Below the pieces are notes generated by a model, which did no database searches, was not told the origin of the DNA, and was given only the letters and a program-made list of their open reading frames with translations. A DNA stretch of 36,799 nucleotides from Thiotrichaceae bacterium (GTDB taxonomy: Bacteria; Pseudomonadota; Gammaproteobacteria; Beggiatoales; Beggiatoaceae), in NCBI GenBank assembly GCA_026991885.1, contig JALXAQ010000233.1, positions 1-36,799 on the forward strand, read 5' to 3'. Shown here piece after piece: positions 1,240-28,895 of the stretch; the first letter of the stretch is position 1, and each line of letters starts with the position of its first letter. The position numbers and the translations under genes were made by a program.

Positions 1240-1945
1240 GTTTAAATCCTTTTCTATGGAGTCCAAGATTTATCTTGGATTCCTGAAATGCCTCACAAAT
1301 CACGGCACGTCGCTCTGGTGCAATATGATGCCAGGCGGTACACAAATCACTTTCTGTTAAGCCAAGTTGTTGCATAGTGTCACGAGCGCGTAGCCGAATC
1401 TCGCGTTGAGAGGATTGTAAGGCACGGCGTAGCGGTAAGCCCTGCTTTTCGCTGTCTTGTAATGTTTGATTGAGTGTGTTTAAGCGTTCTAAGGTATCTG
1501 TCAAAATATCATCATACGCCCTGCCACCGAGCACTTCGCGCCATTGGTGGTGATTGATAATATCACGAGTCAATTGTTCGGCATCATGCAGCGGCAAAGT
1601 CCCGGGCACAAATGCAATGGTTTCGACATCGGGTAGACGCGAAGCCAATGCGACATAAATATCCGATACGCCTGAATACCAAGGCTGTAATTGTAAGGGT
1701 TGCAGAAAAACCAGTCGCCCAATGTGCTCATAATCGGTGTACGGCTCTTGATAGGCGGCGGTTCGCATATAGGTAATCGGTGTCACCGGACCAGCAAGCC
1801 TTTTTAATCCTTTTTCCAAAAAAGTGCTCATTGCCACAGGACCAATGTCCCGAAAGAGAACGGGCAAGGTTTCGTCAGGATTTAATGGACGCAAGGGGGC
1901 GCCGGTATGCCAACTATATTGTTTTAAATTGTCACTCACTGTCAT
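1232..1945 (-). CDS. Hypothetical protein (237 aa); its C-terminal residues are encoded by a palindromic repeat
   Basis: Long ORF in operon register. No recognisable motifs. The last residues ESKINLGL are the translation of the 26-bp palindrome, so the true C-terminus is uncertain. Confidence 0.5.
   Translation of the reverse strand: MTVSDNLKQYSWHTGAPLRPLNPDETLPVLFRDIGPVAMSTFLEKGLKRLAGPVTPITYMRTAAYQEPYTDYEHIGRLVFLQPLQLQPWYSGVSDIYVALASRLPDVETIAFVPGTLPLHDAEQLTRDIINHHQWREVLGGRAYDDILTDTLERLNTLNQTLQDSEKQGLPLRRALQSSQREIRLRARDTMQQLGLTESDLCTAWHHIAPERRAVICEAFQESKINLGLHRKGFKHD
1258..1283. repeat. 26-bp palindromic element, copy A (GGAGTCCAAGATTTATCTTGGATTCC)
   Basis: Perfect inverted repeat apart from one mismatch. 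It lies in the junction between two genes. Confidence 0.8.
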
Positions 1946-1954
1946 AATTGCTTT

Positions 1955-1976
1955 TCCAAACTAAAGTTTGGACTCC
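1955..1976. repeat. Variant palindromic element (TCCAAACTAAAGTTTGGACTCC)
   Basis: Same GGACTCC arm with a different palindromic core. Intergenic. Confidence 0.5.
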
Positions 1977-1979
1977 TAT

Positions 1980-2582
1980 TTAGAATTTTCCACGTCTACC
2001 TAATCTTCTTTCCTGTTCTTCCCGAAGTTGGCGTAGATAATCCATGCGCTCTTCTGCCGACGCTTTCGCTTGTTCCGCTTGATTGAGCAGGCGACGGTAA
2101 TCCAATCGCCTTAGGCGTTGTTGCGACTCTGCCTTGGTTTCACCCTCAATCTCTGCGCCTAAGCAAGCTAAAAATTGTCGTGCAAATTCTTCAACACGGA
2201 GCGGACTTTGGCGGAGTAATTCCATCGTTAAAAGATTCGTCTCCATTGCGAAACTAAAAAAACAGTGCTTAAGTTGTTTTACTCGGTCCGTTTTTACGCC
2301 TAATGCCTTTTTAAGTTCATCATGATCAAGTCCTGCCACTGCAAGTGCTAAACGCTGCCGCCCTTCTTCATTCAGTTGTTCAACTAAAATCTGGAAATCC
2401 TGGGGCGCGATAAAATTGAGTTCCATATCACGATAATGATCGGCTAGCCGTGCATGGACTAATTGCATATCCACTTTTTGTTGTCCCTTTTCTATGATAT
2501 ATTTTTGATAATATCCTTCTAGTAAGCGTAATCTGACGGTAACAGTTGGGAGACTGTTAAAAAATTTTTGACGGATGTTCAT
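1980..2582 (-). CDS. Hypothetical protein (200 aa) with a charged coiled-coil C-terminal half
   Basis: ORF in operon. The E/R/Q-rich C-terminus suggests a coiled coil. No catalytic motifs seen. Confidence 0.5.
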   Translation of the reverse strand: MNIRQKFFNSLPTVTVRLRLLEGYYQKYIIEKGQQKVDMQLVHARLADHYRDMELNFIAPQDFQILVEQLNEEGRQRLALAVAGLDHDELKKALGVKTDRVKQLKHCFFSFAMETNLLTMELLRQSPLRVEEFARQFLACLGAEIEGETKAESQQRLRRLDYRRLLNQAEQAKASAEERMDYLRQLREEQERRLGRRGKF

Positions 2583-4206
2583 GCCTATTCTCTGAAAAAA
2601 GTGCGTGTGCCAATTTTGCTGCTAATTTTGGAAAATCTTCCATTTCTTCAATGCGAATGACGGTTGCTCCTGCTGCTTGATAGCGGGCATCGTTAAGTTC
2701 TCTCAAAGCATGTAGTAATAGGATAAGTTGTTGAGAGGATTGGATCGCTTCTCCCAAAATGCCGGCTGCTTGTTCGTGTTCATCATAATTATAATCAAAG
2801 TCGCTATCGCTGATGATAACGCGAATGGGTTGCGCGTCGCTAGAGTCTATCACTGAACTTTGTAGTTTTTCAAATGGAAATTGGGTGCCTGAGCCGATGT
2901 AGTGCATCAAAAAGCGCGACAATTCAATCTCGGAGCGGCACCATTGCCAATAGGCGACATGATCACTTGAATATAATAAAGCCCGTGCGCGTCCCCCGGC
3001 ACGAATAGCACCCATGACGAGTATTTGTGAAGCTAAGGTCATGGCATTGCGAGTATAGCGCGGATCGGGCATGGAGCCACTGACATCTAAATAAATTTCA
3101 ACTTTGGGTTGCCAGAGGGGGATGTCGTAGCCTTCAACTTCGGCTATTCTGTTGCGCTTTAAGGGTAGGGCGGCACCCAGTTGGTCTCCTCGATAGAGTA
3201 GTGTTGTTAACCAGTCTATATCTTGTACTGCATCTTGGGGTTCCCAGTCATCAATGGTGGTGGGGACGACGGCTTCTCCGAGTGTGCGCTGTGGCGGGGG
3301 GTGAATTAAATAACGCTCTGCTTGTTGGCGATAATAGGCGGCCATGATTTCTGGCACTTGATCGGCAGCCCCCTGTTGAAGTCCGGGCAGTCCCATGATA
3401 CGACGTTCAAGGGTATTTTGGCCATCCAGAGATTTTGCCTCTTTTTCATCGAGCCAGCCTTCTGCAAGGGCTCGGCGGATAGCTTCTTTTTCACGCGCAC
3501 TGGGGGTTAAGGCATCGGCCCAATCTTCTGGACTGGGCTCGTCTGCCGCGCATTGGTAGGGGTTGATATTTTTTGGGTGTTCAGGTGGCTTGATGTAGCG
3601 GCAGACGACGGAGATAAAGTAAAGAAATTGGGTATAAATGTTGGGGCCGAGATTGAAGAGATTTTGGGATAATAATTGTGCATCGGCGCGGTAGCTTGGA
3701 TATGCCTTTTCAAAGTCGGCGGCTCCCATCAGTGCGCCCTGTTCGGTTTGCCAAAGTTCTTCGTAAACGGCTAAATAAAAGAGAAAGGCGGGATCGTTGA
3801 GTGAGTTGTCATCAAAGGCTTGATAGATGCGAATGAGTTGGTCGCGTTGCGTATGCCCGATATGTTCGTTGATCATGATATCGGTAAATAGGTTAATCAG
3901 CGAATATTCTTCAATTGGGATCAGGGATTTTTCTAACAGGCGCAGACGGGCTTGGACAGCAAGCGTTCCCGGATAGCGTACATGATGCCCTATTTCGTGC
4001 GCCAGCAGGGCTTCGATACAGTCTTCTAGTCCTTTTTCTTTGATGGTTTTGTGGTTGAGCGTGATTTGTCTGTTGCCTAAGTGAATTTGGGCGATACTGT
4101 GTTGGTGTGAATCGTCTTTGGGTGTACTTAATAAGAGAAATTGTGACCAGTGGGCTTGTGCCTTTGGCCAGGTTTTGTTGATGATTTGATTGAGGCTTGT
4201 ACTCAT
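2557..4206 (-). CDS. Fused HExxH zinc-metallopeptidase-like N-domain plus von Willebrand A (MIDAS) C-domain protein; partner of the MoxR-like ATPase (DUF2201-like)
   Basis: LLAHEIGHHVRY (HExxH) near the N-terminus. IYLDVSGSM (DxSxS MIDAS) in the C-terminal half. 549 aa. Sits two genes downstream of the AAA+ ATPase. Confidence 0.8.
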   Translation of the reverse strand: MSTSLNQIINKTWPKAQAHWSQFLLLSTPKDDSHQHSIAQIHLGNRQITLNHKTIKEKGLEDCIEALLAHEIGHHVRYPGTLAVQARLRLLEKSLIPIEEYSLINLFTDIMINEHIGHTQRDQLIRIYQAFDDNSLNDPAFLFYLAVYEELWQTEQGALMGAADFEKAYPSYRADAQLLSQNLFNLGPNIYTQFLYFISVVCRYIKPPEHPKNINPYQCAADEPSPEDWADALTPSAREKEAIRRALAEGWLDEKEAKSLDGQNTLERRIMGLPGLQQGAADQVPEIMAAYYRQQAERYLIHPPPQRTLGEAVVPTTIDDWEPQDAVQDIDWLTTLLYRGDQLGAALPLKRNRIAEVEGYDIPLWQPKVEIYLDVSGSMPDPRYTRNAMTLASQILVMGAIRAGGRARALLYSSDHVAYWQWCRSEIELSRFLMHYIGSGTQFPFEKLQSSVIDSSDAQPIRVIISDSDFDYNYDEHEQAAGILGEAIQSSQQLILLLHALRELNDARYQAAGATVIRIEEMEDFPKLAAKLAHALFSENRHEHPSKIF

Positions 4207-4231
4207 TGCTTGTTCTCATTGATTGTCATTT

Positions 4232-5134
4232 TTAACCCGCAACCACTTGCCAAATCCGTTGTGAATCCACCGCAGTCACCAAGAGTTGCCCACAGAATAA
4301 ATATGAATAATGCTCACCAAGCCGTGTCAATTCTACCTTATTTGATTGAATTGTAACACTTGAGTCTTTAAATGTCAGATTTATATGACTTTCCTCGGTT
4401 TGGGTGTGTCCCAAGCATTTGTTATGATATAGCAAAGTCTTTGGCGCATTATTCATAAAAATACCCCCATAAACGCCATCCAGTCGGCGATCATGGACGC
4501 AAACCACGGAGGGGGCAACTTGGTGCATGTCTCCGGGGAGAAAGTTGTCGTGAATGTCGCGCCCGTCCAAAATGGAAACGCGATAGGGGGGGCGGGCTTT
4601 TTCCGGCGGACGTAGCAGCGGTGCGATAATCTCAATGAGAAAATTTTCGATTTTTGTCAAAGCCGGTAGTTCTTCGGCACGGGAGAGAATATAGAGCCCC
4701 ATCCAAGGGGTTTCTTGTCGTATATTTTCGCCCAAATTCCATATTTTTGTTATCAATTCTAATTGCTGTGCAGCGGGCACTTGAGATAAAGTCAGTGGAA
4801 TTTCTTTCAATAGACAATATTCAAGAAAGCTATTCCAAGTAATATTCAATGCTTGATGAGTGGCTTTTTTATTTTTAATCAAGTAGTTATATTGCCATTC
4901 TGGAATAGATTGTGTGATGTAAGCACTACCGATGCCTTCGCGGATCAAGTCCATGTAGCCAGCAAAGACTTTTTCTTTATTGTGTTGGTTGCGAATGTTG
5001 TGCCAGCAGAGTCGTGCCGCTCCTTTGCAAATTTCCAAGAAAAGTTCGTTATTCCAGTGGGCATATTGTTTTTGGCCGAGCGAATGGATGCGGTTGATTT
5101 CTTGGGTAAAATGTTGTGGTGTTTTGTTTGTCAT
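4232..5134 (-). CDS. Hypothetical protein (300 aa) in the MoxR-vWA operon
   Basis: ORF between the ATPase and the vWA gene with tight spacing. No recognisable motif. Confidence 0.5.
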   Translation of the reverse strand: MTNKTPQHFTQEINRIHSLGQKQYAHWNNELFLEICKGAARLCWHNIRNQHNKEKVFAGYMDLIREGIGSAYITQSIPEWQYNYLIKNKKATHQALNITWNSFLEYCLLKEIPLTLSQVPAAQQLELITKIWNLGENIRQETPWMGLYILSRAEELPALTKIENFLIEIIAPLLRPPEKARPPYRVSILDGRDIHDNFLPGDMHQVAPSVVCVHDRRLDGVYGGIFMNNAPKTLLYHNKCLGHTQTEESHINLTFKDSSVTIQSNKVELTRLGEHYSYLFCGQLLVTAVDSQRIWQVVAG

Positions 5135-5159
5135 TTTTTTTCAGTGCAGGCGCGTCGAG

Positions 5160-6671
5160 TTATGATCGGTTCAGTTTATGACGACATTGAACATAAAGGT
5201 GCTTTAATAAAACCAGGTCATTATGGACGGGGGCATTTAATTCATGTTTTGTCACCAAATTTTCCATTTCTTGTTGTAGCATCTGCAAACCTTGTTTGAG
5301 TTCTTGCTGTGGCAGTCCATCAATGCTTGTCTGAAGTTCTATGATAGGTTGTCGCAAGGCTTGATAAGCAACATGTTGTTTCAAGCTATGATCAAATAAT
5401 TGGCGTATCCAAGATACTTTGTCGGTTTGATAAACTTGATTTTCCGTTTTTTGAAAAAAGTCGCTTTGTGGATTGGGCTTGAGTTTTTCGTGTAATACCC
5501 AGGGCAAAATTTGACGGATGTCTTCATTTGAAACGGTGGTTTTTCCCCGAAAAAAGGCCAGTGCTTTGGCATAATGGATAATCGTTTGATAGGCGCGAGC
5601 GGATGCGCCGGATTCTGTTTGGGTGCAAATATTTTCAAATTTGTCCAGTGGACAATCTTCGGTGCAAACGTGTCCTACTCGGCGTCCGGCTAAATGAAGC
5701 GTATCTTTGTTTTGAAATTCCAGCGTATCCGATGCCCGTCGGCAAAAGTCGAGTTGCGAAATCAGAAATCCTAGAATTTCTAGTACTTCTGATGGCATTT
5801 CGATGGCGCGAATTTTTGTGCCGATTTGGTCTAATTCTTCAGGCGTAAAAATGATGTCAGTGGGCATGGGTTGCTCTGCGTTGTTTGCAATGCGCTTTGC
5901 TAATGCCGTCAGATAGCGGGTATTGAAAGGCGTACAGCGCACGACGATGTCGATACGATCTTTTAGGGCTTCAATGACTTGAAATGTGCCACCGCCTAAG
6001 TCATCATTTGCTGTCAAAAACCAGGCTGAATTTTGGCAGTGAATGATTTGTTCATACATTTCGGCATAGCCTTCTGCCATCAGGGACAGTAGACAGGATT
6101 GCGTTTTTGTTGGGATTCTGTTGTATTCGTCAATGATTTTGACGCGCATACTGATCCATTTGCGCCAGAGTACTCGGATATCGGCACTGTGACGCGCTTG
6201 AACTAAGTCGCTCGGCAAGGGGCTGCCCAATATATCGGCTTGCGTCATTTGTGGATGCCCGTGCTGAATGGCGTGTTTGATTTCGTCTAAGCTGTAGCCG
6301 GCAAGTAGTGCCATTAGGGTGGCAACGGTGGTTTTTCCCCGCCCGGGTGCTCCGATGAGTAAGAGGCGACGCGATGTCATCAAAGTCAGCAATGGCAAGA
6401 GGATAAAAGAGGCATAACTGTCTTCTGATGTTAAATTGATTTGTTGCTCGGAACGCCCCAAGGTGATGCGATGACCGTATTCTATGTCATTGTAGGGAGA
6501 ATAGATCGCGTTGTCTAGTATCCATTGATAGGCGAGCCGGCATTTTTCGGTGAGGTTGCCCGCTTTGGGGGATTTAAAGCTAATAGCTCCCGTGTCATCC
6601 AGTTGCGCTCTGCCTTTTAACCAGGATTGTACGAGTGTCTTAGCATCTGTTTGATGTGTGATGTTGTGCAT
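5160..6671 (-). CDS. MoxR-like AAA+ ATPase (AAA_5 type) with N- and C-terminal extensions
   Basis: Walker A LLLIGAPGRGKTTVA. Walker B/sensor region IIDEYNRIPTKTQSCLLSLMAEG, comparable to the MoxR LxDEINRAxPxxQSALLEAM. 503 aa. First gene of the operon. Confidence 0.8.
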   Translation of the reverse strand: MHNITHQTDAKTLVQSWLKGRAQLDDTGAISFKSPKAGNLTEKCRLAYQWILDNAIYSPYNDIEYGHRITLGRSEQQINLTSEDSYASFILLPLLTLMTSRRLLLIGAPGRGKTTVATLMALLAGYSLDEIKHAIQHGHPQMTQADILGSPLPSDLVQARHSADIRVLWRKWISMRVKIIDEYNRIPTKTQSCLLSLMAEGYAEMYEQIIHCQNSAWFLTANDDLGGGTFQVIEALKDRIDIVVRCTPFNTRYLTALAKRIANNAEQPMPTDIIFTPEELDQIGTKIRAIEMPSEVLEILGFLISQLDFCRRASDTLEFQNKDTLHLAGRRVGHVCTEDCPLDKFENICTQTESGASARAYQTIIHYAKALAFFRGKTTVSNEDIRQILPWVLHEKLKPNPQSDFFQKTENQVYQTDKVSWIRQLFDHSLKQHVAYQALRQPIIELQTSIDGLPQQELKQGLQMLQQEMENLVTKHELNAPVHNDLVLLKHLYVQCRHKLNRS

Positions 6672-6832
6672 AAGAATTTTGGATGTTTTTTGACTCTCAT
6701 TCTCTAATCATTTAATATTGCCATCGGGTATGATGCTTGAAACTTATCAGCGGTTCAGGTTCTGTATGCCTGTCTGGCGCACGGTCTGATGTGGCCTGTG
6801 TGTACCGAGAGCCGATGGCTATATCCACCATT

Positions 6833-6905
6833 CGTTAGATAGCTCATCAGGTAGAGCAACTGACTCATAATCAGTGTGTAGCAGGTTCGATTCCTGCTCT
6901 AACTC
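6833..6905 (+). tRNA. tRNA with anticodon CAU (Met or Ile2 type), 73 nt, no encoded CCA; acceptor stem AT-rich with a C1-U72 mismatch
   Basis: Folded by hand. Acceptor CGTTAGA/TCTAACT. D-arm GCTC-ATCAGGTA-GAGC. Anticodon arm ACTGA-CTCATAA-TCAGT (U33, CAT, A37). Variable loop GTGTA. T-arm GCAGG-TTCGATT-CCTGC. Discriminator C. Confidence 0.55.
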
Positions 6906-6908
6906 ATA

Positions 6909-6935
6909 TGACTTGCCAAGTCACTATTTTAACAC
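6909..6935 (+). terminator. Hairpin plus T-tract after the tRNA
   Basis: TGACTTGCCAAGTCA followed by CTATTTT. Confidence 0.35.
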
Positions 6936-7176
6936 AAGAACCGTGACCGTCTTCGGTGGGCATCAGTGATGCTCACAGCATGTTCAGGGCTTTGTGTGAT
7001 AATGGGTACGGCAAGCTTGGTTTTTTCTCTCCGTGTTGTCCCTAAACCCAAGCCAGATAGATTTTACGTTTTGGGGGCGGGCTGACGGGCGGATTAAATC
7101 CAGCTTGTCGCAAATTGTCACCCGCATTGTGCATGTGGGGGCGGTCATTTAATAAATGGAACAGGAGGCTAAAATC

Positions 7177-8307: not shown

Positions 8308-9285
<978 letters not shown>

Positions 9286-9287
9286 TT

Positions 9288-9328
9288 TGAACGACAGGGA
9301 TTAATTATTAGCAGGGATAAGTCAAAAC
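9288..9328 (+). repeat. Copy 2 of the roughly 40-bp intergenic repeat
   Basis: TTGAACGACAGGGATTAATTATTAGCAGGGATAAGTCAAAAC directly after the trxB stop. Confidence 0.7.
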
Positions 9329-9344
9329 ATTATATTTTCGTTGT

Positions 9345-9400
9345 TTCGGGAATGGAGCTGATTTCCCGAAACAAAACTTCAAAAAAGTCGTTTTTTTTCC
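9345..9400 (+). terminator. Rho-independent terminator of trxB
   Basis: 12-bp stem TTGTTTCGGGAA...TTCCCGAAACAA followed by an A/T run ending in TTTTTTTT. Confidence 0.6.
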
Positions 9401-10483: not shown

Positions 10484-10497
10484 TCGCATAACAATAC

Positions 10498-10602: not shown

Positions 10603-11220
10603 ATGAAAAAAAAATTTGCTTCATTCCTCATCACAGGGAAAGCGGCTACGCTCCCCTTTTTTATGAATAACAGCGTGGCTGATACCAACCTTGCAGATAT
10701 GTTATTCGATAGCAGCCAACCACAGCTAATGGAACGAGCGGGGCAAGGCATTGCGGTGACAGGTGACACGGTGCAAATCGTATCCCCTGGTCCTGGCTGT
10801 TCGTTCCCTCAGCCCACTGACATCATGAATGTCGTTGTCACGGGCGTGCGTAACGGTGATTTTGTTTTCATCGCTTCTGCTGATAACAAAGACGATCCAA
10901 ATTTTATCGCTGTCAATCCCGCTTTTAGAATTGGTCAACAAAACTTGCGTATTTTGACCAGCTTTTATGTCGATAGATTGGAATTGTCGCCACTATCCGG
11001 TTTCGAGCATGGAGGCGGCGATTTGGGCAACGCAGTGTCTGCCATTTCGGTGCCTGTGGATTTGAATCAAATATCAAGCACTGGTTTATTTTATATGCAA
11101 GCTTTGATTCTGCGTCCTAATCCGCTTACAGCAGAATTGCCAGCTACTATGGTTTTTTCAGAATTGGATGAAATTAAGCAAGTGACAGCGACTTGTGACT
11201 CTTATGGTATACATTACTAA
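10603..11220 (+). CDS. Secreted hypothetical protein (signal peptide)
   Basis: MKKKFASFLITGKAATLPFFMNNSVA-DT signal-peptide-like N-terminus. Followed by a terminator hairpin. Confidence 0.6.
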   Translation: MKKKFASFLITGKAATLPFFMNNSVADTNLADMLFDSSQPQLMERAGQGIAVTGDTVQIVSPGPGCSFPQPTDIMNVVVTGVRNGDFVFIASADNKDDPNFIAVNPAFRIGQQNLRILTSFYVDRLELSPLSGFEHGGGDLGNAVSAISVPVDLNQISSTGLFYMQALILRPNPLTAELPATMVFSELDEIKQVTATCDSYGIHY

Positions 11221-11226
11221 GGAGTG

Positions 11227-11256
11227 GTGCAAGGTACGCCTTGCACATCTTTTTTT
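11227..11256 (+). terminator. Rho-independent terminator (GTGCAAGGTACGCCTTGCAC plus T7)
   Basis: 8-bp stem with a TACG loop followed by ATCTTTTTTT. The same 18-mer recurs inverted at 33778. Confidence 0.6.
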
Positions 11257-11841: not shown

Positions 11842-11845
11842 ACCT

Positions 11846-11890
11846 TAACGACAGGGATTAGTTTTTAGCAGGGATAGGTCAAAACCGAAC
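11846..11890 (+). repeat. Copy 3 of the roughly 40-bp intergenic repeat
   Basis: TTAACGACAGGGATTAGTTTTTAGCAGGGATAGGTCAAAACCGAAC after the GNAT stop. Confidence 0.7.
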
Positions 11891-16756: not shown

Positions 16757-16778
16757 AAAGTCCCTAATCTAAAAATCC

Positions 16779-16815
16779 TATTTCTTGAAGAAATAGGATT
16801 TTTTAAGGCGCGTTT
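16779..16815. terminator. Bidirectional terminator between bamD and glgP
   Basis: AAAAATCCTATTTCTT-GAAG-AAATAGGATTTTTT perfect hairpin with A/T runs on both sides. Confidence 0.65.
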
Positions 16816-16824
16816 AAATTGCAA

Positions 16825-19500: not shown

Positions 19501-19534
19501 TATAAGCTATAAGCTATAAGCTATAAGCTATAAT
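19501..19534. repeat. Tandem heptamer (TATAAGC) x about 4.7, overlapping the glnA stop and last codons
   Basis: Direct reading of tataagctataagctataagctataagctataa. Confidence 0.9.
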
Positions 19535-20930
19535 ACATATCAAATTCCACGGGATGAGTGGTCATACGCAGCCGCGTGACTTCTTCCATCTTCAGAGCGA
19601 TGTAAGCATCAATCAAATCATTGGTAAACACGCCACCGGCTATCAAAAATTCACGGTCGTTGTCGAGTGCTTCTAACGCCATATCTAAGGAGTGGCAAAC
19701 GGTTGGAATGTTTTTCTCCAGTTCTGGCGGCAGATCGTACAAGTTTTTGTCCATGGCTTCACCAGGGTCAATCTTGTTTTGAATGCCATCCAGTCCCGCC
19801 ATTAGCATAGCGGAGAAGGCAAAATAGGGGTTGGCGGTTGAATCTGGAAAACGCACTTCAATACGGCGACCTTTAGGACTGGTCACGTAAGGTATGCGTA
19901 TTGAGGCTGAGCGGTTACGCGCTGAGTAAGCCAATAATGTGGGGGCTTCAAATCCGGGCACAAGACGTTTGTAGCTGTTCGTCGTGGCATTGGTAAATGC
20001 ATTGATGGCGCGTGCATGTTTGAGAATGCCGCCGATGTAATATAAGGCGGTTTCTGATAGACTACCATATTTATCGCCGGCAAAGACGTTATTGCCCTCT
20101 TTGCTCAAGGATTGATGCACATGCATGCCGTTGCCGTTGTCACCGACGAGGGGTTTAGGCATAAATGTCGCGGTTTTTCCGTAGCCATGGGCGACATTCA
20201 TAACGACATATTTAAGGAGTTGCACCTCGTCAGCTTTTTTGACTAAGGTGTTAAAGAATACGCCGATTTCAGCTTGTCCGCTTGTAGCGACTTCATGGTG
20301 ATGAACTTCGGCTTTTAAACCCATTTCTTCCATAGTCAAGCACATGGCTGAGCGGATGTCATGCTGAGAATCGACGGGCGGCACGGGAAAATATCCCCCT
20401 TTGACACCTGGACGATGCCCAAGGTTGCCATCATCATAGACTTTTTCTGAATTCCAGCCGGCTTCTTGTGAGTCCACTTTACAAAATGAGCCGCTGATAT
20501 CTGAGCCCCAACGCACGTCATCAAAAATGAAAAATTCATTTTCAGGGCCAAAATAGGCGGTATCGGCAATGCCGGTGGATTTTAGATAATTTTCTGCCCG
20601 TTTTGCCAAGGAGCGTGGATCGCGTTCATAACCTTGCATGGTGGCAGGCTCAATGACGTCACAACGTAAATTTAAGGTGACTTCATCGGCAAACGGATCT
20701 AGGACTGCTGTTTGATCTTCTGGCATTAAAATCATGTCTGATTCATTGATACCTTTCCATCCAGCAATGGACGAGCCATCAAACATTTTACCGTCAACAA
20801 AGAAATCTTCATCAACAGTATGCGCGAGTACTGTGACATGTTGTTCCTTGCCTTTGGTATCAGTAAAGCGGAGATCAACAAATTTGACATTGTTTTCCTT
20901 GAGCATGTTTAACACATTTTCACCGGACAT
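19521..20930 (-). CDS. glnA: Glutamine synthetase type I
   Basis: [32 protein letters not shown]-terminus. ATP- and glutamate-binding regions. The DMYYSL end matches GlnA. 469 aa. Confidence 0.95.
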
Positions 20931-20945
20931 TTCAATTACCTTTTA

Positions 20946-20972
20946 AAGTTATCAGTTATCAGTTATCAGTAT
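20946..20972. repeat. Tandem heptamer (AGTTATC) x 3 plus a partial unit, immediately upstream of the glnA RBS
   Basis: agttatcagttatcagttatcagtatc. On the coding strand this reads GATAACTGATAACTGATAACT. Confidence 0.85.
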
Positions 20973-21185
20973 CATGTAGGGGGTAGAGACGTTGAACGCA
21001 CCTGATTTTATCATGGTCAGACGAAAAAAAATACGCAGTATTTTTGGGTTGCATAATCCATGCTCAAAACCGTTTAAAAATTTAATTTATTATAAATTAA
21101 TAAGTTAAATCAATTCTATCCACCCGCTTGATTGTTGTGTTTATTGCAGAGACAATCGGATTTGTAGCAAAGATAACAAATTAGT

Positions 21186-22340: not shown

Positions 22341-22383
22341 GTTATCTATTATAATCGGTTTGAATGTTCTGAGAAGTTAATCC

Positions 22384-22809
22384 ATGAATCCAAATAATGA
22401 GGCTGATGTTAAACAAGGTGGTAATGCAAGTGTTCTCGCGGGTGTTCCCAAATCTTTGCCGGCTTTGCTCAAGGCTTTGCGTATTCAAGAAAAAGCATCT
22501 GCTGTCGGTTTTGATTGGCAACGACGAGAGGAGGTTTGGGGGAAAGTTCGTGAGGAATTAGCGGAATTTAAAGAGAGTGCGAGTCGTGAGGAGGCTGAAC
22601 AGGAATTTGGCGATTTGTTATTTTCATTGGTTAATTACGCACGATTTGTAGATATAAATCCTGAAACGGCTTTGGAAAAAAGCAATAAAAAATTTATTAA
22701 GCGGTTTAATTATATAGAATCCGCCACGCGGGCTGCTGGAAAAACGTTGCAGGAAATCTCTTTAGCTGATATGGATGCTTATTGGGAAGAGGCTAAAATA
22801 ATTGTTTGA
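22384..22809 (+). CDS. Single-domain MazG-like nucleotide pyrophosphohydrolase (corresponds to the C-terminal half of E. coli MazG)
   Basis: LPALLKALRIQEKASAVGFDW and EEAEQEFGDLLFSLVNYARF (EExxE/D). An in-frame stop 6 nt upstream of the ATG precludes a longer ORF. Confidence 0.7.
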   Translation: MNPNNEADVKQGGNASVLAGVPKSLPALLKALRIQEKASAVGFDWQRREEVWGKVREELAEFKESASREEAEQEFGDLLFSLVNYARFVDINPETALEKSNKKFIKRFNYIESATRAAGKTLQEISLADMDAYWEEAKIIV

Positions 22810-22930
22810 CTTTATATTTTAAATTGAGTACCATTCCCACCGTGAGTTTTTGGTGCATGTTCTAAAAACGAGCATTTGATTATTAGATATTAGATTAGAA
22901 GTAGCTTTTGAGAAAATGAGGTTAATTTGT

Positions 22931-23134
22931 ATGATGGAAGGCACCGTAAAGTGGTTCAATGAGACCCGAGGTTATGGTTTTATTTCTCCGTCCGATGGCG
23001 GCAGGGATGTGTTTGTTCATTTCTCCGCAATCCAAAAAGAGGGCTTTAAAACTCTCCATGAAGGACAAACGGTTGAATTTGAATCGACAGAAGGTCCAAA
23101 GGGACCACAGGTGACCAAGTGCAATCCACTTTGA
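22931..23134 (+). CDS. Cold-shock protein (CspA family)
   Basis: [15 protein letters not shown] (RNP1) and VFVHFSAI (RNP2). Confidence 0.9.
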
Positions 23135-23169
23135 AATAAGTTGGTAGGTTTCTAGGTGACATGTTTTAA

Positions 23170-23195
23170 GGCGTCCAAGATAAATCTTGGACTCC
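23170..23195. repeat. 26-bp palindromic element, copy B (core GTCCAAGATAAATCTTGGAC)
   Basis: GGCGTCCAAGATAAATCTTGGACTCCG plus a shared 3' extension GACAATCAATATTTTT. Confidence 0.8.
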
Positions 23196-23253
23196 GACAA
23201 TCAATATTTTTGTTGCCCGTAACCCGTTATGGTTGTGGGCATTTTTGATCGTA

Positions 23254-23856
23254 TTACAAAGCAAAGAACAAATCATACAATTCATCAGTCGCATAATTAG
23301 CAGCAGTGCTACCATCACTGTTTTTAAGCCCTCGAATACGACCAGACGCTGATTGACCGTCATCAAGGCGAGCCTCAATGATGAGGGCAATGTTTTGAGG
23401 TATTTTGGTGAATGCAATGAACGTCCCAGAAATACCAGCCGCTCCGCTAGAAACCCCTATTATGCCAGTCAATGTATTGTTAGGTTGTTCTTGGCCAGCC
23501 CCTGCGACGAATCCTGCGTTGCGTAAGTGCAACCAAAAAAGGCGAGACTCTACATTGGCTGTTGTTGAATCAAACACACCACCAATTGTGCCGTCGCCAT
23601 CACCACATAAATTGCTGGTGCTACAATCTGCTATATCAGTAAATCTATCCGCCTTCTTGTCATCCCCAGGTAAGGCACGATAACGATCTTGATAGCTATA
23701 AATGGCTGCCACGATCCCATTATATTCATTCTCAATATTTTTGGCTCTCGCGTTGGTAATCATTTCTTGTCCTTTGAGCACTGCTCCCAACAGTAAGCCA
23801 ATAATCACCATCACTATGGCGATTTCTACTAATGTAAATCCAGTTTGTTTTTTCAT
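23254..23856 (-). CDS. Type IV pilin / pseudopilin-like protein (prepilin N-terminal methylation domain)
   Basis: MKKQTGFTLVEIAIVMVIIGLLLG class III signal plus conserved Glu5. Confidence 0.8.
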   Translation of the reverse strand: MKKQTGFTLVEIAIVMVIIGLLLGAVLKGQEMITNARAKNIENEYNGIVAAIYSYQDRYRALPGDDKKADRFTDIADCSTSNLCGDGDGTIGGVFDSTTANVESRLFWLHLRNAGFVAGAGQEQPNNTLTGIIGVSSGAAGISGTFIAFTKIPQNIALIIEARLDDGQSASGRIRGLKNSDGSTAANYATDELYDLFFAL

Positions 23857-23877
23857 TTTTATTGTTCTCCATCATTT

Positions 23878-23902
23878 ATTTCCAAGATAAATCTTGGACT
23901 CC
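23878..23902. repeat. 26-bp palindromic element, copy C
   Basis: TTTCCAAGATAAATCTTGGACTCC plus the shared extension TGACAATCATAAATTTTT. Same orientation as copy B. Confidence 0.75.
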
Positions 23903-23945
23903 TGACAATCATAAATTTTTACAATGTATTAATCAACACTTAACC

Positions 23946-25607
23946 ATGTCTGAACATTTAAGTTCACTGATTCCACCTAAACACGAACATCGCCTGCTAG
24001 GTTTAATGTTAATCACCTGGCATATTGCCTTGTGTTGGGATATTTCTGAGCGATTTTTGCCTTTTGTCCTGCTGATTCATGTCGGTTTTTTTATATTCTG
24101 GATAGCTTTAGATTTACACTCGATTAAAAATCGGGTTGTCCTTGCTATCGTTATTTTAGTATTTATTGTTTTTCCCAATATTTGGTTGATGACTCTTTGG
24201 CAAATCATCTTATTGGGTTTAATGGGCGGACGCGATCTCGTTCAACCCCGCGACCGGATTATCAATATAGCTGCCATCCTTTTTTTGAGCTTGGACTTAT
24301 TTCTCATTAATTTACCTCAATTGATTGTTATCGAGGGATTGGCTTTGCTTGTACCGAACATCGCGCTCAATTATGGGGTGCTGTGTGTGCCGTTGACTTT
24401 TTTATTTATCTCTGCTGATGAACACCGCGATTATATTGATTTTTTTCATGGATTAACGGTCAGTTTGTTGATGGTTATTATGGTATTGGGCAGCCTTGTT
24501 ATCATGTCTCAGAGCCATGTGAGTTTACCACTTGCCATTTTTCAAATGTCCTTAGCAATAACAATATTTATTTTGGCAATCAGTGGCATATTCGCAAACG
24601 AAGAAAATGTTGAACAACAATGGACACGCCATTTATTCAACATGGGTGGTCATTTTGAACAATGGATAAATGATCTCGCCAAACCGCACAACTATAAAAG
24701 TTTAACCCCTCAAGAATTTATACAAGCAGGCTTTGAGCAACTCTCCACTTTACCCTGGATATCCGGTATTGCCTGGCATTCTCCCTATAGTGAAGAAATG
24801 CTAGGTGAACAGCAACAACAACAAATCACACTCACAGCGCAAAGCCTTGAAGTCACCATTTATACATATCACCGCATCAGTGCCAGCCAACACTTTCAGA
24901 TCAAAACCCTCATACAATTGCTAGAACATTTTCACCAAGCCAGGCGCCGTGAAGCCGCCTTTGCACAACAAGCCCATTTGCAAGCGATTCATGAAACGGG
25001 GGCTAAATTGACTCATGACATCAAAAACCTATTACAATCTTTACATGCCATTACCTCAGTTATAGAAAGCTCTCCCCCCCAAAAATTTGGCGATACTCAG
25101 CGCTTGTTGCAAGGACAAATGCCACATTTGACTCAGCGCCTAAAACGTACCTTGGATAAATTACAAAAACCGGCGGAATTTTCTTATTCACACGTACCTG
25201 TCACCCTTTGGTGGGAGAATTTGAAAACCCGTTATCGCAAAAGTCACATTGAATTTTCGGATTATAAGGAAATTGAAAATATTCTCATTCCAGAAGATTT
25301 ATTTGATAATGTCTCAGAAAATTTGTTACAAAACGCTCTGACAAAACGCCAACGTGAGCCTGAATTAGAAATCAATGTACTGTTGCATATCAGTAAACGT
25401 CGCTTACAATTGAGTGTATGCGATAATGGTAGTCCAATACCCGAAGAAATTACTAATCAACTATTTAGTCAACCTGTACCTTCTCGTGATGGGTTTGGTA
25501 TCGGTCTTTATCAGGCGGTTAAACAATTGGCGCATACCGGATACAAACTCAAGATCGTTGAGAATATAGAAGGTCAAGTCTGTTTTGAATTAGCGAGCAC
25601 TGAATAA
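23946..25607 (+). CDS. Multi-pass membrane sensor histidine kinase (about 8 TM helices, HisKA plus HATPase_c)
   Basis: H-box HDIKNLLQSL. N-box LLQNAL. G1 DNGSPIPEE. G2 GFGIGL. N-terminal 250 aa polytopic. Start moved to MSEHL because the upstream Met overlaps repeat copy C. Confidence 0.8.
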   Translation: MSEHLSSLIPPKHEHRLLGLMLITWHIALCWDISERFLPFVLLIHVGFFIFWIALDLHSIKNRVVLAIVILVFIVFPNIWLMTLWQIILLGLMGGRDLVQPRDRIINIAAILFLSLDLFLINLPQLIVIEGLALLVPNIALNYGVLCVPLTFLFISADEHRDYIDFFHGLTVSLLMVIMVLGSLVIMSQSHVSLPLAIFQMSLAITIFILAISGIFANEENVEQQWTRHLFNMGGHFEQWINDLAKPHNYKSLTPQEFIQAGFEQLSTLPWISGIAWHSPYSEEMLGEQQQQQITLTAQSLEVTIYTYHRISASQHFQIKTLIQLLEHFHQARRREAAFAQQAHLQAIHETGAKLTHDIKNLLQSLHAITSVIESSPPQKFGDTQRLLQGQMPHLTQRLKRTLDKLQKPAEFSYSHVPVTLWWENLKTRYRKSHIEFSDYKEIENILIPEDLFDNVSENLLQNALTKRQREPELEINVLLHISKRRLQLSVCDNGSPIPEEITNQLFSQPVPSRDGFGIGLYQAVKQLAHTGYKLKIVENIEGQVCFELASTE

Positions 25608-25624
25608 TCTAGTGGAGAATTGAT

Positions 25625-25990
25625 ATGTCAACACCTTTTTTTCTGAAGCGCCTCAATGATCATATTCAATATTTAAGAAATATTGAGGCTACCCTGGCAG
25701 GGACAGGGGATTTTCAAGGCACTGATCACCATGATTGTCAATTAGGACAATGGCTTTATGGTGATGGTCCTAATCAAGTGGCAGCCCTAGACAACAGCAA
25801 AGTTCAGGAAATTTTTGATAGCTTATTTGAGCCACATGAACAGTTTCACACTGTCAGCAAACAAGCACTGGAAAAAAAACAAGCGGGTGATGAGGGAGCC
25901 GCTCAAAACACCATGACGGAAATGTACAAAATCTCGCATATCCTCACGCAAAAATTGCTAAAACTGGATGGCCTGACTAAAGGCGAATAG
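25625..25990 (+). CDS. Stand-alone CZB (chemoreceptor zinc-binding) domain protein
   Basis: HHDCQLGQWL ... HEQFH matches the CZB H-x3-C-x-LG-x-W ... HxxxH signature. GGAG RBS. Confidence 0.65.
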   Translation: MSTPFFLKRLNDHIQYLRNIEATLAGTGDFQGTDHHDCQLGQWLYGDGPNQVAALDNSKVQEIFDSLFEPHEQFHTVSKQALEKKQAGDEGAAQNTMTEMYKISHILTQKLLKLDGLTKGE

Positions 25991-26000
25991 AAAACTATCT

Positions 26001-27128
26001 ATGGAAATAGTCGCAGACGAAAATATCCCTTTTGTAAGTACAGTATTTGCCAGTTTAGGTGAAGTCCGTACTCTTATTGGGCGGCAAATCAATCGCGCCG
26101 ATTTAGGCGATGCTGAAGTCTTATTAGTGCGATCTGTCACCCAAGTCGATGAAAAATTACTGGCGGGCAGTGCTGTGCGCTTTGTTGGTACAGCAACCAT
26201 CGGATTAGATCATATTGATTTAGATTATCTCTCCAAAAAAAATATGGCTTTTGCCAGTGCCCAGGGTAGTAATGCGACTTCGGCAGCAGAATATGTCATC
26301 AGTGCTTTATTGATTATCGCGGAACGTCAAGGATTTCAACTACGCGACAAAACGGTAGGCATTATTGGTTGTGGCAATGTTGGCTCTCGTGTGTTGAAAA
26401 AATTAAAAGCCTTGGGCGTGGAATGTATTATCCATGATCCGCCATTGCAAGAAAAAACAGATAATCGGGATTATGTCGATTTAAACACTGTGCGATGTGC
26501 AGACATTATCACCCTGCATGTGCCACTCAGCAAAGGTGGGCGTTATCCCACTGAGCATTTAATCAATGCCGACTTTCTCAGCAAGTTACAAGATGATGTG
26601 ATTTTAGTGAATACATCACGCGGGGGAGTGGTGGATGAAAGGGCTTTATTAGAAAGGGCAACAATGACGACTATATTGGATGTGTGGAAAAATGAACCCA
26701 ATATTAATCAATTGTTGTTAGAACGCGCTACTTTAGGGACTCCGCATATTGCGGGTTATAGTTTTGATGGTAAGGTGCGAGGAACAGAGATGTTATATGC
26801 TGCCGTGTGTGACTATTTTCAGCAAACACCGCAAGCACAAATCACTTTGCCCGCACCCCCACTGAAACGATTAACTTTTTCCCACACAATTGATGATCAA
26901 GTTGCCATACAGTCTGCTGTTATGGCTTGTTATGATGTGCGCCGCGATGATGCCGCACTCCGCCGATCTAGTGCCTATTTTGATAATTTAAGAAAAAACT
27001 ATCCGATGCGGCGAGAATTCAGTTGTGTTGAAATTGAATTACCTGCGGAAAAATCGGCACTTGCGGCACAATTGCGGGGACTAGGATTTATTGTAAGGCA
27101 TCACGCACACGCAACATTTGCGCCTTAG
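26001..27128 (+). CDS. pdxB: Erythronate-4-phosphate dehydrogenase
   Basis: MEIVADENIPF start. GIIGCGNVGSRV NAD-binding motif. D-2-hydroxyacid dehydrogenase catalytic region. About 375 aa. Confidence 0.85.
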   Translation: MEIVADENIPFVSTVFASLGEVRTLIGRQINRADLGDAEVLLVRSVTQVDEKLLAGSAVRFVGTATIGLDHIDLDYLSKKNMAFASAQGSNATSAAEYVISALLIIAERQGFQLRDKTVGIIGCGNVGSRVLKKLKALGVECIIHDPPLQEKTDNRDYVDLNTVRCADIITLHVPLSKGGRYPTEHLINADFLSKLQDDVILVNTSRGGVVDERALLERATMTTILDVWKNEPNINQLLLERATLGTPHIAGYSFDGKVRGTEMLYAAVCDYFQQTPQAQITLPAPPLKRLTFSHTIDDQVAIQSAVMACYDVRRDDAALRRSSAYFDNLRKNYPMRREFSCVEIELPAEKSALAAQLRGLGFIVRHHAHATFAP

Positions 27129-27474
27129 CCTCTTCTGCAATCGGAGTGATTTCGGGATTATTGGTTAATCCAAAAACTTTGGCAGGATCCATGAAAGTCA
27201 CAGTTGTTGAGCCATCGGCTTCTTCACGAAGTAAGACATTGCATGGAAATAATGCGCCTATATCAGCATGTTGACTGATCAAGCGATGCGCGAGAGAAGG
27301 ACTACAGGCACTCAAAATACGATAGTGAGGCATATCTATGCCTAACTTATTTTTAAGAACGCTATTGACATGAATCTCATTCAAAATACCAAATTTCTCT
27401 TTTTGCAAGGCTTCTGTTACTCGTTTGACGGCAGTATCGAAGTCATCTTTCAGTTTGACATTAAAAGTAGGCAT
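27088..27474 (-). CDS. DUF302 domain protein
   Basis: AVKRVTEALQKEKFGILNEIHV...YRILSACSPSLAHRL...FPCNVLL pattern typical of DUF302. 3' end convergently overlaps pdxB by 41 nt. Confidence 0.75.
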   Translation of the reverse strand: MPTFNVKLKDDFDTAVKRVTEALQKEKFGILNEIHVNSVLKNKLGIDMPHYRILSACSPSLAHRLISQHADIGALFPCNVLLREEADGSTTVTFMDPAKVFGLTNNPEITPIAEEAKAQMLRVRDALQ

Positions 27475-27502
27475 AACAAATAAAATCTTCGCTTAGATTT
27501 AG

Positions 27503-27526
27503 GAGTCCAAGATTTATCTTGGACTT
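27503..27526. repeat. 26-bp palindromic element, copy D
   Basis: GGAGTCCAAGATTTATCTTGGACT. Confidence 0.8.
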
Positions 27527-27530
27527 ATGT

Positions 27531-28100
27531 TCAAGGAAAAGGAAAATATTTCATAGGGGCAGTCATTCTATTCACATTAGAGCCCATGACACCCAATTGA
27601 CTATTTAAACCACTAAATTGGTGATTCATTTTTGCCAAGTCAACTCTCATCAGAGCGATATTATCGCTCAATGTTATAACACTGCTGTTTATCTGATTGA
27701 TACTTGTATTTATATCATTGATATTGGTGTTTATATTAGTGACAGACTCATTCATCATTGTGATGACTTTGGCATGTTCATCTAAATTATCTAATGAGTG
27801 TTTCACTCCATAGACATTTCCAGCAACCACTGTAAGATTTTGACTGATATTTTTCATATAACCAGCCACCTCATCTAGGCGTTGAGTGATGTTGCCCATA
27901 TCTGATAATAGTACGACTATAAGAGCAAACATGGCAGCAGCCCAAATCATTAAACTAATCATACTAAATCGGATAAGTTGGGCAGTCTGTGCGCTGATTT
28001 CAAAGATCAAGCTTTCTCGACGTTGCATTGCCAAATTGAACTCACGCAGGCTGCTTTCAACGAGTTCGGCTATTTCTTTAGGATTCTCATTTTCGCTCAT
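27531..28100 (-). CDS. Membrane-anchored protein with an Asn/Ile-rich heptad-like repeat region
   Basis: One TM (LIRFSMISLMIWAAAMFALIVVLL) followed by NESVTNINTNINDINTSINQINSSVITLSDNI. Start set at MSENEN to avoid overlap with acyP. Confidence 0.5.
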   Translation of the reverse strand: MSENENPKEIAELVESSLREFNLAMQRRESLIFEISAQTAQLIRFSMISLMIWAAAMFALIVVLLSDMGNITQRLDEVAGYMKNISQNLTVVAGNVYGVKHSLDNLDEHAKVITMMNESVTNINTNINDINTSINQINSSVITLSDNIALMRVDLAKMNHQFSGLNSQLGVMGSNVNRMTAPMKYFPFP

Positions 28101-28110
28101 AAATATCACT

Positions 28111-28389
28111 TTAGCCAATTCCAAAGCCAGTGGGACAATCGGGATAATCGACTGTTTGACATTGAACATCCGTTACGGATGCCAAAGAAGGGCCGTCGTG
28201 TAACCAAGCCCGTAGCTTATCGACTGCATTGGACGTACCACAGGCTAAAACCTCAACACGCCCATCGGCCAAATTACGCGCCCAACCTGATACGCCTAAA
28301 CCTTGCGCTTGTTTACGAGTATAATAACGAAATGATACGCCTTGAACACGTCCACTGATAAAACAGTGTTGACATATTTTTTTTTCCAT
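28111..28389 (-). CDS. acyP: Acylphosphatase
   Basis: ISGRVQGVSFRYYT and GWARNLADGRVEV signature motifs. 92 aa. Confidence 0.85.
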   Translation of the reverse strand: MEKKICQHCFISGRVQGVSFRYYTRKQAQGLGVSGWARNLADGRVEVLACGTSNAVDKLRAWLHDGPSLASVTDVQCQTVDYPDCPTGFGIG

Positions 28390-28406
28390 TTGAGTTACCT
28401 ACTATT

Positions 28407-28895
28407 ATGCGCTTAAAGACTTTTTTCATCACTTTGATCGGTTTAGTCATCATCTCTATCAGTCTAGGGGCTATTAACCTGCGGCATATGGACAAGGAAA
28501 CGCGGGATTTTATCAATACAACGATGTTAGGTTTGTTTGTCGACTGGAATAATAGTGAATTTTTAACTTACACCAGCAATGAGTTTCGAGAAAAATTGAC
28601 AAATGAACAATTATCTAAGATTAACTTAGTCTTTCAACGTTTGGGGAATTTATTAAATTATCATGGGGCAGAGGGTGGCGTATCCAGAAATAACTACTGG
28701 GATATCAGTGTCCGTTACAAGGTACAGGCAAGTTTTCAGAATGGACGATTCTCCGCCACCATCACGCTTATCAAACAGCAAGAAAAGTGGGCAATCGATC
28801 GATTTGAATATCAATATACCTTTTTTCCTAATAGGCGGGACGAAGGCTCACTTAAAGTGGTAGAGTCCAAGATAAATCTTGGACTCCTTTCATAA
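28407..28895 (+). CDS. Hypothetical membrane/secreted protein (162 aa); C-terminal residues encoded by a palindromic repeat
   Basis: N-terminal TM FFITLIGLVIISISLGA. The terminal ESKINLGLLS is the translated palindrome copy E. Confidence 0.5.
   Translation: MRLKTFFITLIGLVIISISLGAINLRHMDKETRDFINTTMLGLFVDWNNSEFLTYTSNEFREKLTNEQLSKINLVFQRLGNLLNYHGAEGGVSRNNYWDISVRYKVQASFQNGRFSATITLIKQQEKWAIDRFEYQYTFFPNRRDEGSLKVVESKINLGLLS
28863..28888. repeat. 26-bp palindromic element, copy E
   Basis: AGAGTCCAAGATAAATCTTGGACTCC. Confidence 0.8.

Follow-up and report, generated by a model that had tools for sequence, protein, structure and literature searches.

A 36,799-nt stretch of DNA from a Thiotrichaceae bacterium (contig JALXAQ010000233.1 of assembly GCA_026991885.1), which is a metagenome scaffold (JOHN19-1, SAMN10217877) and which we call the window, carries one short palindromic sequence at several places between its genes. 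What is this repeat, how did it come to be there, and what has it done to the genes beside it? An earlier note, made from the letters of the window alone, had described it as a perfect 26-bp palindrome and as a "REP/MITE-like dispersed hairpin element", the abbreviations standing for repetitive extragenic palindrome and miniature inverted-repeat transposable element. We find that it is a strand-oriented 23-nt hairpin with a short tag at one end which, to judge from orthologous sites, has been mobile. In our view it probably represents a family of REP-like elements of the Thiomargarita/Parabeggiatoa branch of the Beggiatoaceae, moved by an enzyme acting in trans.

The repeat is real and far beyond chance. 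The idealised 26-mer GGAGTCCAAGAT-WW-ATCTTGGACTCC matches the window at 1258-1283, 23170-23195, 27502-27527 and 28862-28887, with one or two mismatches each (in a search allowing three), compared to an expectation of 0.00 matches from 100 dinucleotide-preserving shuffles. Its 12-nt half ATCTTGGACTCC occurs nine times with at most one mismatch, where 0.09 occurrences are expected. No copy is the perfect palindrome that had been claimed, because each deviates from the ideal: the arms of these four copies are complementary at 11/12, 11/12, 10/12 and 11/12 positions, respectively. A further copy reported at 23878 is present, but its arms pair at only 8/12 positions and what it retains is the core TCCAAGATAAATCTTGGACTCC at 23881-23902. 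Two of the reported start positions (27503 and 28863) were off by one, and the variant (1955-1976) and the half-site (32665-32676) are confirmed.

To place these copies in context we used a 20-nt core to scan 185,579 species genomes, which gave at least 103 stretches, all the listed ones coming from five assemblies, and a scan of metagenomes gave at least 120 more. About 509 copies in distinct sequence contexts are present in the 1.66 Mb that we fetched around these matches (individual loci are given L numbers below). The five assemblies among the matches listed are Ca. Thiomargarita nelsonii (two assemblies, Hydrate Ridge and THI036), two Ca. Parabeggiatoa metagenome-assembled genomes (MAGs) and "MAG115", and the identical 23-mer is abundant in all of them as well as in many metagenome contigs. 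The repeat is therefore not specific to the genome in the window.

The many copies show that the unit has a direction. The earlier note took the central dinucleotide, AA or TT, as a mark of orientation, and this is true in a stronger sense than was proposed: when read with AA at the center, all six hairpins in the window have a perfect 3' half (...TTGGACTCC), and every mismatch is at the 5' end. Across the fetched copies in the same reading, TCC directly follows the stem in 97-99%, while the three bases before the stem are 61-67% conserved and read GAC instead of the palindromic GGA. In a general search for CCAA-x-AA-x'-TTGG hairpins in the 103 genome loci, 293 of 315 were followed by ACTCC, and in the 120 metagenome loci the hairpins bearing the ACTCC tail had AA in the loop in 285 cases and TT in 5. 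This coupling of loop to tag, together with the invariant 3' half, means that the unit is strand-oriented and not a symmetric palindrome. It is a 23-nt hairpin, 5'-GTCCAAGAT-AA-ATCTTGGAC-TCC-3', or in detail 5'-(GT)CCAAGAT-AA-ATCTTGG(AC)-TCC-3', and on the opposite strand the GGAG tag comes first and the hairpin second. The 3' tail CTCC, which reads GGAG on the opposite strand, hardly ever changes, and the 5' flank is variable; the core TGGACTCC lies nearly always within a hairpin and is almost never seen without its hairpin partner. The bases before GGAG (T in 52%, A in 58%) do not yield GTAG, and CGTC is found at the opposite, variable end in a minority to about half of copies, with its GTC pairing into the stem. 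By this definition the window contains six hairpins and one half-site in 36.8 kb. All copies are intergenic or at gene junctions, as the earlier note had said, when compared to open reading frames (ORFs) and European Nucleotide Archive (ENA) gene calls:

1254..1285, minus strand: 32-nt insertion containing one unit (1258-1283), minus strand CAG-GAATCCAAGATAAATCTTGGACTCC-ATAG.
1943..1979, plus strand: 37-nt insertion containing the ACT/AGT stem variant, unit 1955-1976, TCCAAACTAAAGTTTGGACTCC.
23170..23195, plus strand: unit GGCGTCCAAGATAAATCTTGGACTCC, 3' of the cold-shock gene (22931..23134) in its end region, convergent with the pilin gene and upstream of a separate terminator-like hairpin at 23214-23241.
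23881..23902, plus strand: unit TCCAAGATAAATCTTGGACTCC, degenerate at its 5' end, in the gap from which the pilin gene (23254..23856, minus strand) and a histidine kinase gene (from 23946, plus strand) diverge.
27502..27524, minus strand: unit reading GTCCAAGATAAATCTTGGACTCC on that strand, with the stop of 27531..28169 on one side and the start of the DUF302 gene (27088..27474) on the other.
28862..28887, plus strand: unit AGAGTCCAAGATAAATCTTGGACTCC, in the gap where ORF 28407..28895 and the phosphoribulokinase gene 28897..29778 converge; it now encodes the last 11 codons of the ORF.
32665..32676, plus strand: half-site ATTTTGGACTCC, tag-proximal arm only.

Pairing and folding show that the repeat forms a hairpin with an unpaired tag, GGAG 5' on one strand and CTCC 3' on the other. 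Anchoring on the 3' arm alone, which we did because the final set of units was selected for perfect inner pairing and is circular for formal covariation, we found the inner stem paired in 282 of 286 copies. Changes are two-sided: one position is A-T in 254 copies and C-G in 32, and the next is G-C in 224 and A-T in 59, whereas beyond the ninth pair positions are mostly unpaired. The inner stem falls into covarying subtypes (GAT/ATC, AAT/ATT and ACT/AGT; also AGCT/AGCT). Folded as DNA, the 23-26 nt unit forms an 8-bp stem (8-9 bp) with a 4-nt loop (TAAA), at -6.8 to -8.1 kcal/mol (z about -6). An intrinsic (Rho-independent) terminator was ruled out, because the base matrix of the copies has no T-run after the tail, so that a U-tract is missing, and a terminator scan picks none of the copies; the scan does report a separate terminator-like hairpin at 23214-23241, following the 23170 copy. 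Searching the whole window against Rfam 15 at the gathering score gave only a tRNA at 6833-6905, and left the repeat unmatched.

Comparisons between the window and related loci bear on whether the element moves. Sites that are empty in one genome and filled in another, the insertion polymorphism that the earlier note had raised, were found for the copies at 1258 and 1955. An automatic search for empty sites among the fetched loci returned mostly identical duplicates and self-matches of arrays, its usable cases being these two window sites and a fuzzy one (L194/L202). The 1254..1285 insertion falls within the final codons of gene 1232..1945, and 18 nt separate it from the radical-SAM start downstream. 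Three relatives (L233, L234 and L235) are empty at this point, reading GAGGCATTT|AAAAGGATTTAAACATG with the two genes 2 nt apart, and comparing empty to filled sites reveals no target duplication. In L239 a tight head-to-head doublet occupies the same point, so the window copy looks like a collapsed doublet; L236 and L238 have a singlet followed by a break in synteny. The second insertion, at 1943..1979, separates the stop of 1980..2582 from the start of 1232..1945, whose present ATG it provides, and is absent from L239, L233 and L234. In L239 the called downstream start overlaps the end of the upstream gene, and in L233 and L234 the two gene calls likewise overlap. In L236 (210-300), the ACT-variant element that precedes the P0002 gene has its left part replaced by tandem copies of an 18-nt sequence, (GACAAAAGGCTGAGAAAT)n. 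The empty and filled sites show that the element has been mobile: it enters intergenic DNA and the very ends of genes and leaves no target-site duplication.

Other sites have kept their copies and illustrate how these decay. The cold-shock protein in the window is 100% identical to its counterpart in T. nelsonii THI036, and the intergenic sequences on its flanks differ very little; at site 23170, THI036 (L107) and L106 carry the variant AGCGTCCAATATTTATCTTGGACGCT, and L108 is identical to the window. Site 23881 is a doublet in L106, has a decayed left unit in L107, and retains only the right unit in the window. Site 27502 is filled in L112, L240 and L241 and is shortened in L242 to the tag-proximal half GGAGTCCAAGAT. 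At site 28862, L240 and L241 retain a TAG stop and 8 nt (TCGCTCAA) before the element, where the window has a 12-nt deletion that took the stop; L242 and L243 hold a different hairpin (GCGTGCAAGGCGTAGCTTGCACGC), and contig L110 ends inside the element. By these comparisons the element is shown to persist at orthologous sites and to decay there through internal deletions, which tend to spare the arm next to the tag. Since decay to a tag-proximal half is seen at orthologous sites (L242, L107), the half-site at 32665..32676 is probably an AAT/ATT-variant unit that has decayed in the same way. We also note that the copies at 27502 (minus) and 28862 (plus) form a 25-nt perfect inverted repeat with tags outward, bracketing 1.36 kb with three called genes (a DUF1664-like gene, an acylphosphatase gene and a 162-aa ORF); because the same arrangement exists in the relatives L240-L242, it is not a recent composite insertion.

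Copies are often paired. Among adjacent pairs within 400 nt, 46 are head-to-head (tags outward, 4-14 nt between cores), 23 are tail-to-tail (linker about 10 nt) and 40 are head-to-tail. We identified 49 unique tight head-to-head doublets, of which 21 are exactly 46 nt long, with mixed-subtype pairs predominating. No target-site duplication of at least 3 nt was seen at any of the 49, and 8 share 2 nt. Larger arrays also occur: T. nelsonii L052 has a 61-nt unit repeated 8.6 times (98% matches), with alternating GAT(+) and AAT(-) units and two fixed linkers, and Parabeggiatoa L009 has a 24-nt head-to-tail array. Comparison of the T. nelsonii assemblies revealed doublets that persist at orthologous sites with indels inside the units. 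Synteny sometimes ends exactly at an element, and such breaks no more than hint at the role in rearrangement that the earlier note had suggested.

Using crude ORFs (the longest ATG ORFs) on the 1.66 Mb of repeat-centered fragments, only 38 of 463 placeable copies (8%) are inside ORFs, leaving about 92% outside, though ORFs cover 70% of the DNA. Co-directional gaps hold 303 copies, convergent gaps 73 and divergent gaps 49, compared to 62%, 15% and 23%, respectively, expected by gap length, so divergent gaps are depleted. In the genome loci the median copy is 62 nt from the upstream stop but 127 nt from the downstream start. The strand with GGAG first is favored in mRNA near stops (69 versus 43) and the reverse near starts (47 versus 34). 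The tag end tends to face the nearer gene. The only gene families that recur beside elements in the fetched loci are the metacaspase, TPR/CHAT and sensor-kinase families, which are large and paralogous in these genomes, with no other family consistently adjacent, and clustering of the flanks for associated sequences was dominated by neighboring copies of the element itself.

What have the copies done to the genes of the window? The earlier note pointed out that the element, read in frame, encodes ESKINLGL and that this forms the C-terminal part of ORFs 1232..1945 (minus strand) and 28407..28895 (plus strand), which is so. It went on to call these C-termini suspect, but they are genuine in-frame read-through, the ancestral stop having been removed by the insertion at 1258 and by the 12-nt deletion at 28862. 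Homologs of gene 1232..1945 without the element (76-89% identity) end 3-6 residues after ...ICEAF/L, while the three closest sequences (the window, P0001 and P0002) bear element-encoded tails, in two reading frames. Because of the 32-nt insert, the reading frame now bypasses the old TAA and runs on to a TGA within the start of the next gene. At its other end, the 1943..1979 insertion shifts the N-terminus of the same product from (V/M)ENSK.. to MTVSD. In the ORF beginning at 28407, loss of 12 nt including the stop gave the tail ESKINLGLLS. The spurious N-terminal extensions that the note suspected are indeed present, as the TTG-start ORFs 379..1266 (minus strand) and 23862..25607 (plus strand) read through the element; the public gene call for the latter starts at an internal ATG, 23946. 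These effects–new tails on both ends of 1232..1945, a read-through tail on 28407.., and spurious TTG ORFs–look incidental. One insertion has also parted two genes that abut in relatives, and another has parted two whose calls overlap there. For annotation, ends of Thiomargarita-type ORFs that read ESKINLGL, QDKSWTP or similar are element-derived, TTG-start extensions that run through the element are spurious, and contigs tend to break at these repeats.

A second hairpin family, (A)GGAGTGCAAGG-CGTA-CCTTGCAC, shares the GGAGT..CAAG start of the main element. It is present in the window at 11223-11250 (after the stop of 10603..11220) and at 33773-33800 (in the convergent gap 33758/33829), and at about 21 sites in the fetched loci, including L242 1938-1976 and L243 619-657, the site orthologous to window 28862. 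A shared tag with differing stems matches the superfamilies of tagged REPs (Di Nocera et al. 2013, PMC3733652).

How might such an element spread? The propagating form would probably be the tight head-to-head doublet GGAGTCCAAGATTTATCTTGGAC·GTCCAAGATAAATCTTGGACTCC (46 nt, tags outward), similar to the paired REPs known as REPINs, and many singlets, including the near-palindromic 1258 copy of the window, may be collapsed or half-deleted doublets. Two series of sites can be arranged in this way, with the direction of change inferred: doublet (L239), singlet (L236) and collapsed (window) at 1258, and doublet (L106), half-decayed (L107) and singlet (window) at 23881. The strand-specific coupling of loop to tag, the lack of duplications, the doublets, and the existence of a second GGAGT..CAAG hairpin family together point to recognition of a folded single strand. 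The most likely agent would be a trans-acting enzyme that recognizes the folded strand and its tag, namely an HUH tyrosine transposase like those of IS200 or the REP-associated tyrosine transposases (RAYTs). Candidate enzymes exist, 13 IS200-like genes having been reported from T. nelsonii (Flood et al. 2016, PMC4853749).

Several observations weigh against an origin of this kind. In about 1.7 Mb around more than 500 copies we found no Y1/HUH transposase by tblastn, an HUH-Y regular expression, phmmer, or a hidden Markov model of three sequences; the queries (YafM, IS200 and ISHp608 TnpA) were approximate sequences and the fragments are only part of each genome, so that the one RAYT of a genome could easily lie outside them and the negative is no more than moderately informative. 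The Y1 search gave nothing below an E-value of about 0.01, and one weak best match was a VWA protein. Ten scanned ORFs with elements on both sides belong to ordinary families or have no match. The tag is GGAG and not the GTAG of RAYT-associated REPs, and the exact 23-mer is conserved across genera, which a host function or factor could explain as well as a transposase. Nor does this model account for an orientation bias: relative to co-directional genes the CTCC strand is antisense in 178 cases and sense in 101 (P = 5 x 10−6, duplicates removed). Lastly, the four other window sites open to comparison (23170, 23881, 27502 and 28862) are filled in every relative found; in the most distant, the 27502 copy is shortened and 28862 has a different hairpin. 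The movement demonstrated for this genome is therefore past movement.

The alternative that survives best is that the copies are functional modules selected by the host and are not mainly selfish: they could stabilize RNA 3' ends, modulate translation or termination after stop codons, or be binding sites for nucleoid proteins or gyrase, a role proposed for the bacterial interspersed mosaic elements (BIMEs) of Escherichia coli. Their sequence would then be kept up by selection for the function. This would be compatible with a mobile origin, and we consider it possible but unlikely as the main explanation. It would account for the retention of an identical 23-mer across Thiomargarita, Parabeggiatoa and related bins, for copies kept at orthologous sites where the adjacent proteins are 74-94% identical, for the location of copies nearer to upstream stops and their depletion from divergent promoter gaps, and for the orientation bias relative to transcription; moreover the tag, read from sequence, resembles a Shine-Dalgarno or anti-Shine-Dalgarno motif (GGAG/CUCC). 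But both orientations are common, there is no U-tract and a separate terminator-like hairpin stands after the 23170 copy, and the 98%-identity tandem arrays, the insertions into coding ends and the free decay at orthologous sites all look selfish. A related and more doubtful idea is that GGAG-tagged hairpins, comprising this element and its sister GGAGTGCAAGG-CGTA-CCTTGCAC, could be a third superfamily of tagged REPs, kept identical in different genera of giant sulfur bacteria by a dedicated recognition protein other than a classical RAYT, and/or that the hairpin with its Shine-Dalgarno-like tag could be a functional RNA module after stop codons, acting as a decoy for ribosomes or RNase; such a module would explain why the orientation bias depends on position.

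It is very improbable that the doublet is a MITE, that is, an element of 46 nt whose terminal inverted repeats measure 23 nt each and which an IS630/Tc1-like enzyme or another DDE transposase would move by cut-and-paste. The outer ends, (A)GGAGTCC...GGACTCC(T), are indeed inverted repeats, no dinucleotide flanks the doublets more often than TA (14/49 on one side and 13/49 on the other), and these genomes have many DDE transposases and MITEs (PMC4853749). However, the absence of direct duplications of 3 nt or more from all 49 doublets argues against it, the eight doublets sharing 2 nt being about what is expected by chance for TA-rich flanks, as does the empty/filled comparison at site 1258. 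In addition, 23-46 nt is below the usual size of a MITE, and strand-specific coupling of loop to tag is unexpected if terminal inverted repeats are recognized as double strands. The earlier description as a "REP/MITE-like dispersed hairpin element" holds up, since this is a short, multi-copy, extragenic hairpin with inverted doublets, arrays and insertion polymorphism, but the reading as a DDE-type MITE fails.

We give no more credence to the repeat being a DNA uptake signal (like DUS or USS) for natural transformation, even though it has an oriented and invariant core (TTGGACTCC) conserved across genera, "dialects" in the inner stem and frequent inverted pairs after genes as in Neisseria, and type IV pilin genes are present. 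Uptake sequences are common in coding DNA, whereas about 92% of copies here are outside ORFs and the core almost never lacks its hairpin partner, and tandem arrays and insertion/collapse behavior are atypical of such signals. An operator for a dimeric transcription factor governing a regulon, already disfavored, is equally implausible: the palindromic 9-2-9 architecture and one copy in a divergent promoter gap (23881-23902) would suit it, but copies number in the hundreds, are depleted between divergent genes and common between convergent ones and downstream of stops, and have an asymmetric invariant tag, an oriented loop, tandem arrays, two-sided stem changes and unrelated housekeeping neighbors.

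Other repeats are present in the window and its relatives. TAACTGA direct heptamer repeats, a feature of marine Beggiatoaceae described by MacGregor 2015 (PMC4679880), occur just upstream of glnA (19521..20930) at 20945-20972 (minus strand), and in L200 (about 1540-1600) and L144 (about 1240-1330) they abut head-to-tail runs of the ACT-variant element. The end of the window, 36673-36799, matches the first ~120 nt of the RepeatModeler family-32 consensus of Flood et al. and is 91% identical to T. nelsonii L080; as family 32 was identified as group II introns (PMC4853749), such an intron probably starts here and runs off the window. At 16765-16820, AAAAATCCTATTTCTTGAAGAAATAGGATTTTT is a bidirectional terminator-like hairpin between convergent genes. 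Four T. nelsonii loci contain sequences 88-98% identical to it (L029 twice, L077, L094 and L002), which makes it another dispersed hairpin family. The repeat AACGACAGGGATTA...AGCAGGGATArGTCAAAAC is found shortly after stop codons at 9288-9328 and 11845-11885, with a shorter copy at 259-280, and resembles part of RepeatModeler family 35 of Flood et al. In T. nelsonii THI036 a repeat ...GTTCCCACGCTCAGCGTGGGAATGCATGCCTCGACGCTCCGCGTCGA... lies beside doublets (L018 about 330-420, L001 about 3720-3800), and the orthologous site of the Hydrate Ridge assembly lacks it. The same intergenic spots have accumulated several small hairpin families.

For polyploid giant bacteria known for their unusual load of mobile DNA, these results add a cleanly defined, cross-genus, oriented family of REP-like elements that inserts into gene termini. 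It offers a handle for finding the enzyme that moves the hairpin, for measuring the plasticity of genomes among strains, and for testing whether elements of REP type shape operon junctions. Because the kind of element is well known, a specialist should be only moderately surprised. Its nearest counterparts are the tagged REPs with GTAG or CGTC tags, which are 20-40 bp long with stems of 6-13 bp and loops of 2-4 nt (PMC3733652). In both cases the unit bears a short conserved tag at one end and a short tail opposite, complementary changes in the stem set the subfamilies apart, and units occur as singlets, as dimers in head-to-head, tail-to-tail or head-to-tail arrangement, and as clusters, mainly between unidirectional or convergent ORFs and occasionally inside gene ends. 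Stem-loop size, high dispersed copy number, extragenic location, and dimers and clusters are thus features of REPs that are all seen here, but the tag is GGAG instead of GTAG or CGTC, and no RAYT was found in the sequences searched. By stem, no feature here matched the four CGTC families, which have A/T in the first two stem positions and a CCA tail.

REPINs, which are moved by RAYTs (Bertels and Rainey 2011, PMC3116915), are similar in having conserved inverted doublets, remnant-like singlets and no target duplication. They differ in that the doublets here usually abut (46 nt, no spacer) and are mostly of mixed subtypes, we saw no RAYT gene with flanking repeats in the 1.7 Mb sampled, and the sequence is shared across genera. 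In E. coli, BIME-2 elements are arrays of alternating Y and Z2 REPs, and the array of T. nelsonii L052, with two opposed subtypes and fixed linkers, is built on the same plan; the window has no such array. BIMEs are named by Flood et al. 2016 (PMC4853749), and the element itself is contained in their RepeatModeler "family 26" of Ca. T. nelsonii Bud S10 (bases 593-653, ...GACGTCCAAGATAAATCTTGGACTCCAGACTCAGGAGTCCAAAATTTATTTTGGACG...), a stretch that "occurs broadly across the genome ... often intergenic", with matches on 141 of 439 contigs. That remark concerned part of a consensus of CHAT/TPR genes, and the unit, its orientation, variants, doublets, mobility and cross-genus spread were not described there. 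Literature searches with the element sequence gave only primer-like coincidences, and found neither another description of the element nor a paper joining Beggiatoaceae with REP terms, MacGregor 2015 containing no mention of the element. By this comparison the element is of the ordinary REP/REPIN/BIME kind, previously noted only in passing in this lineage.

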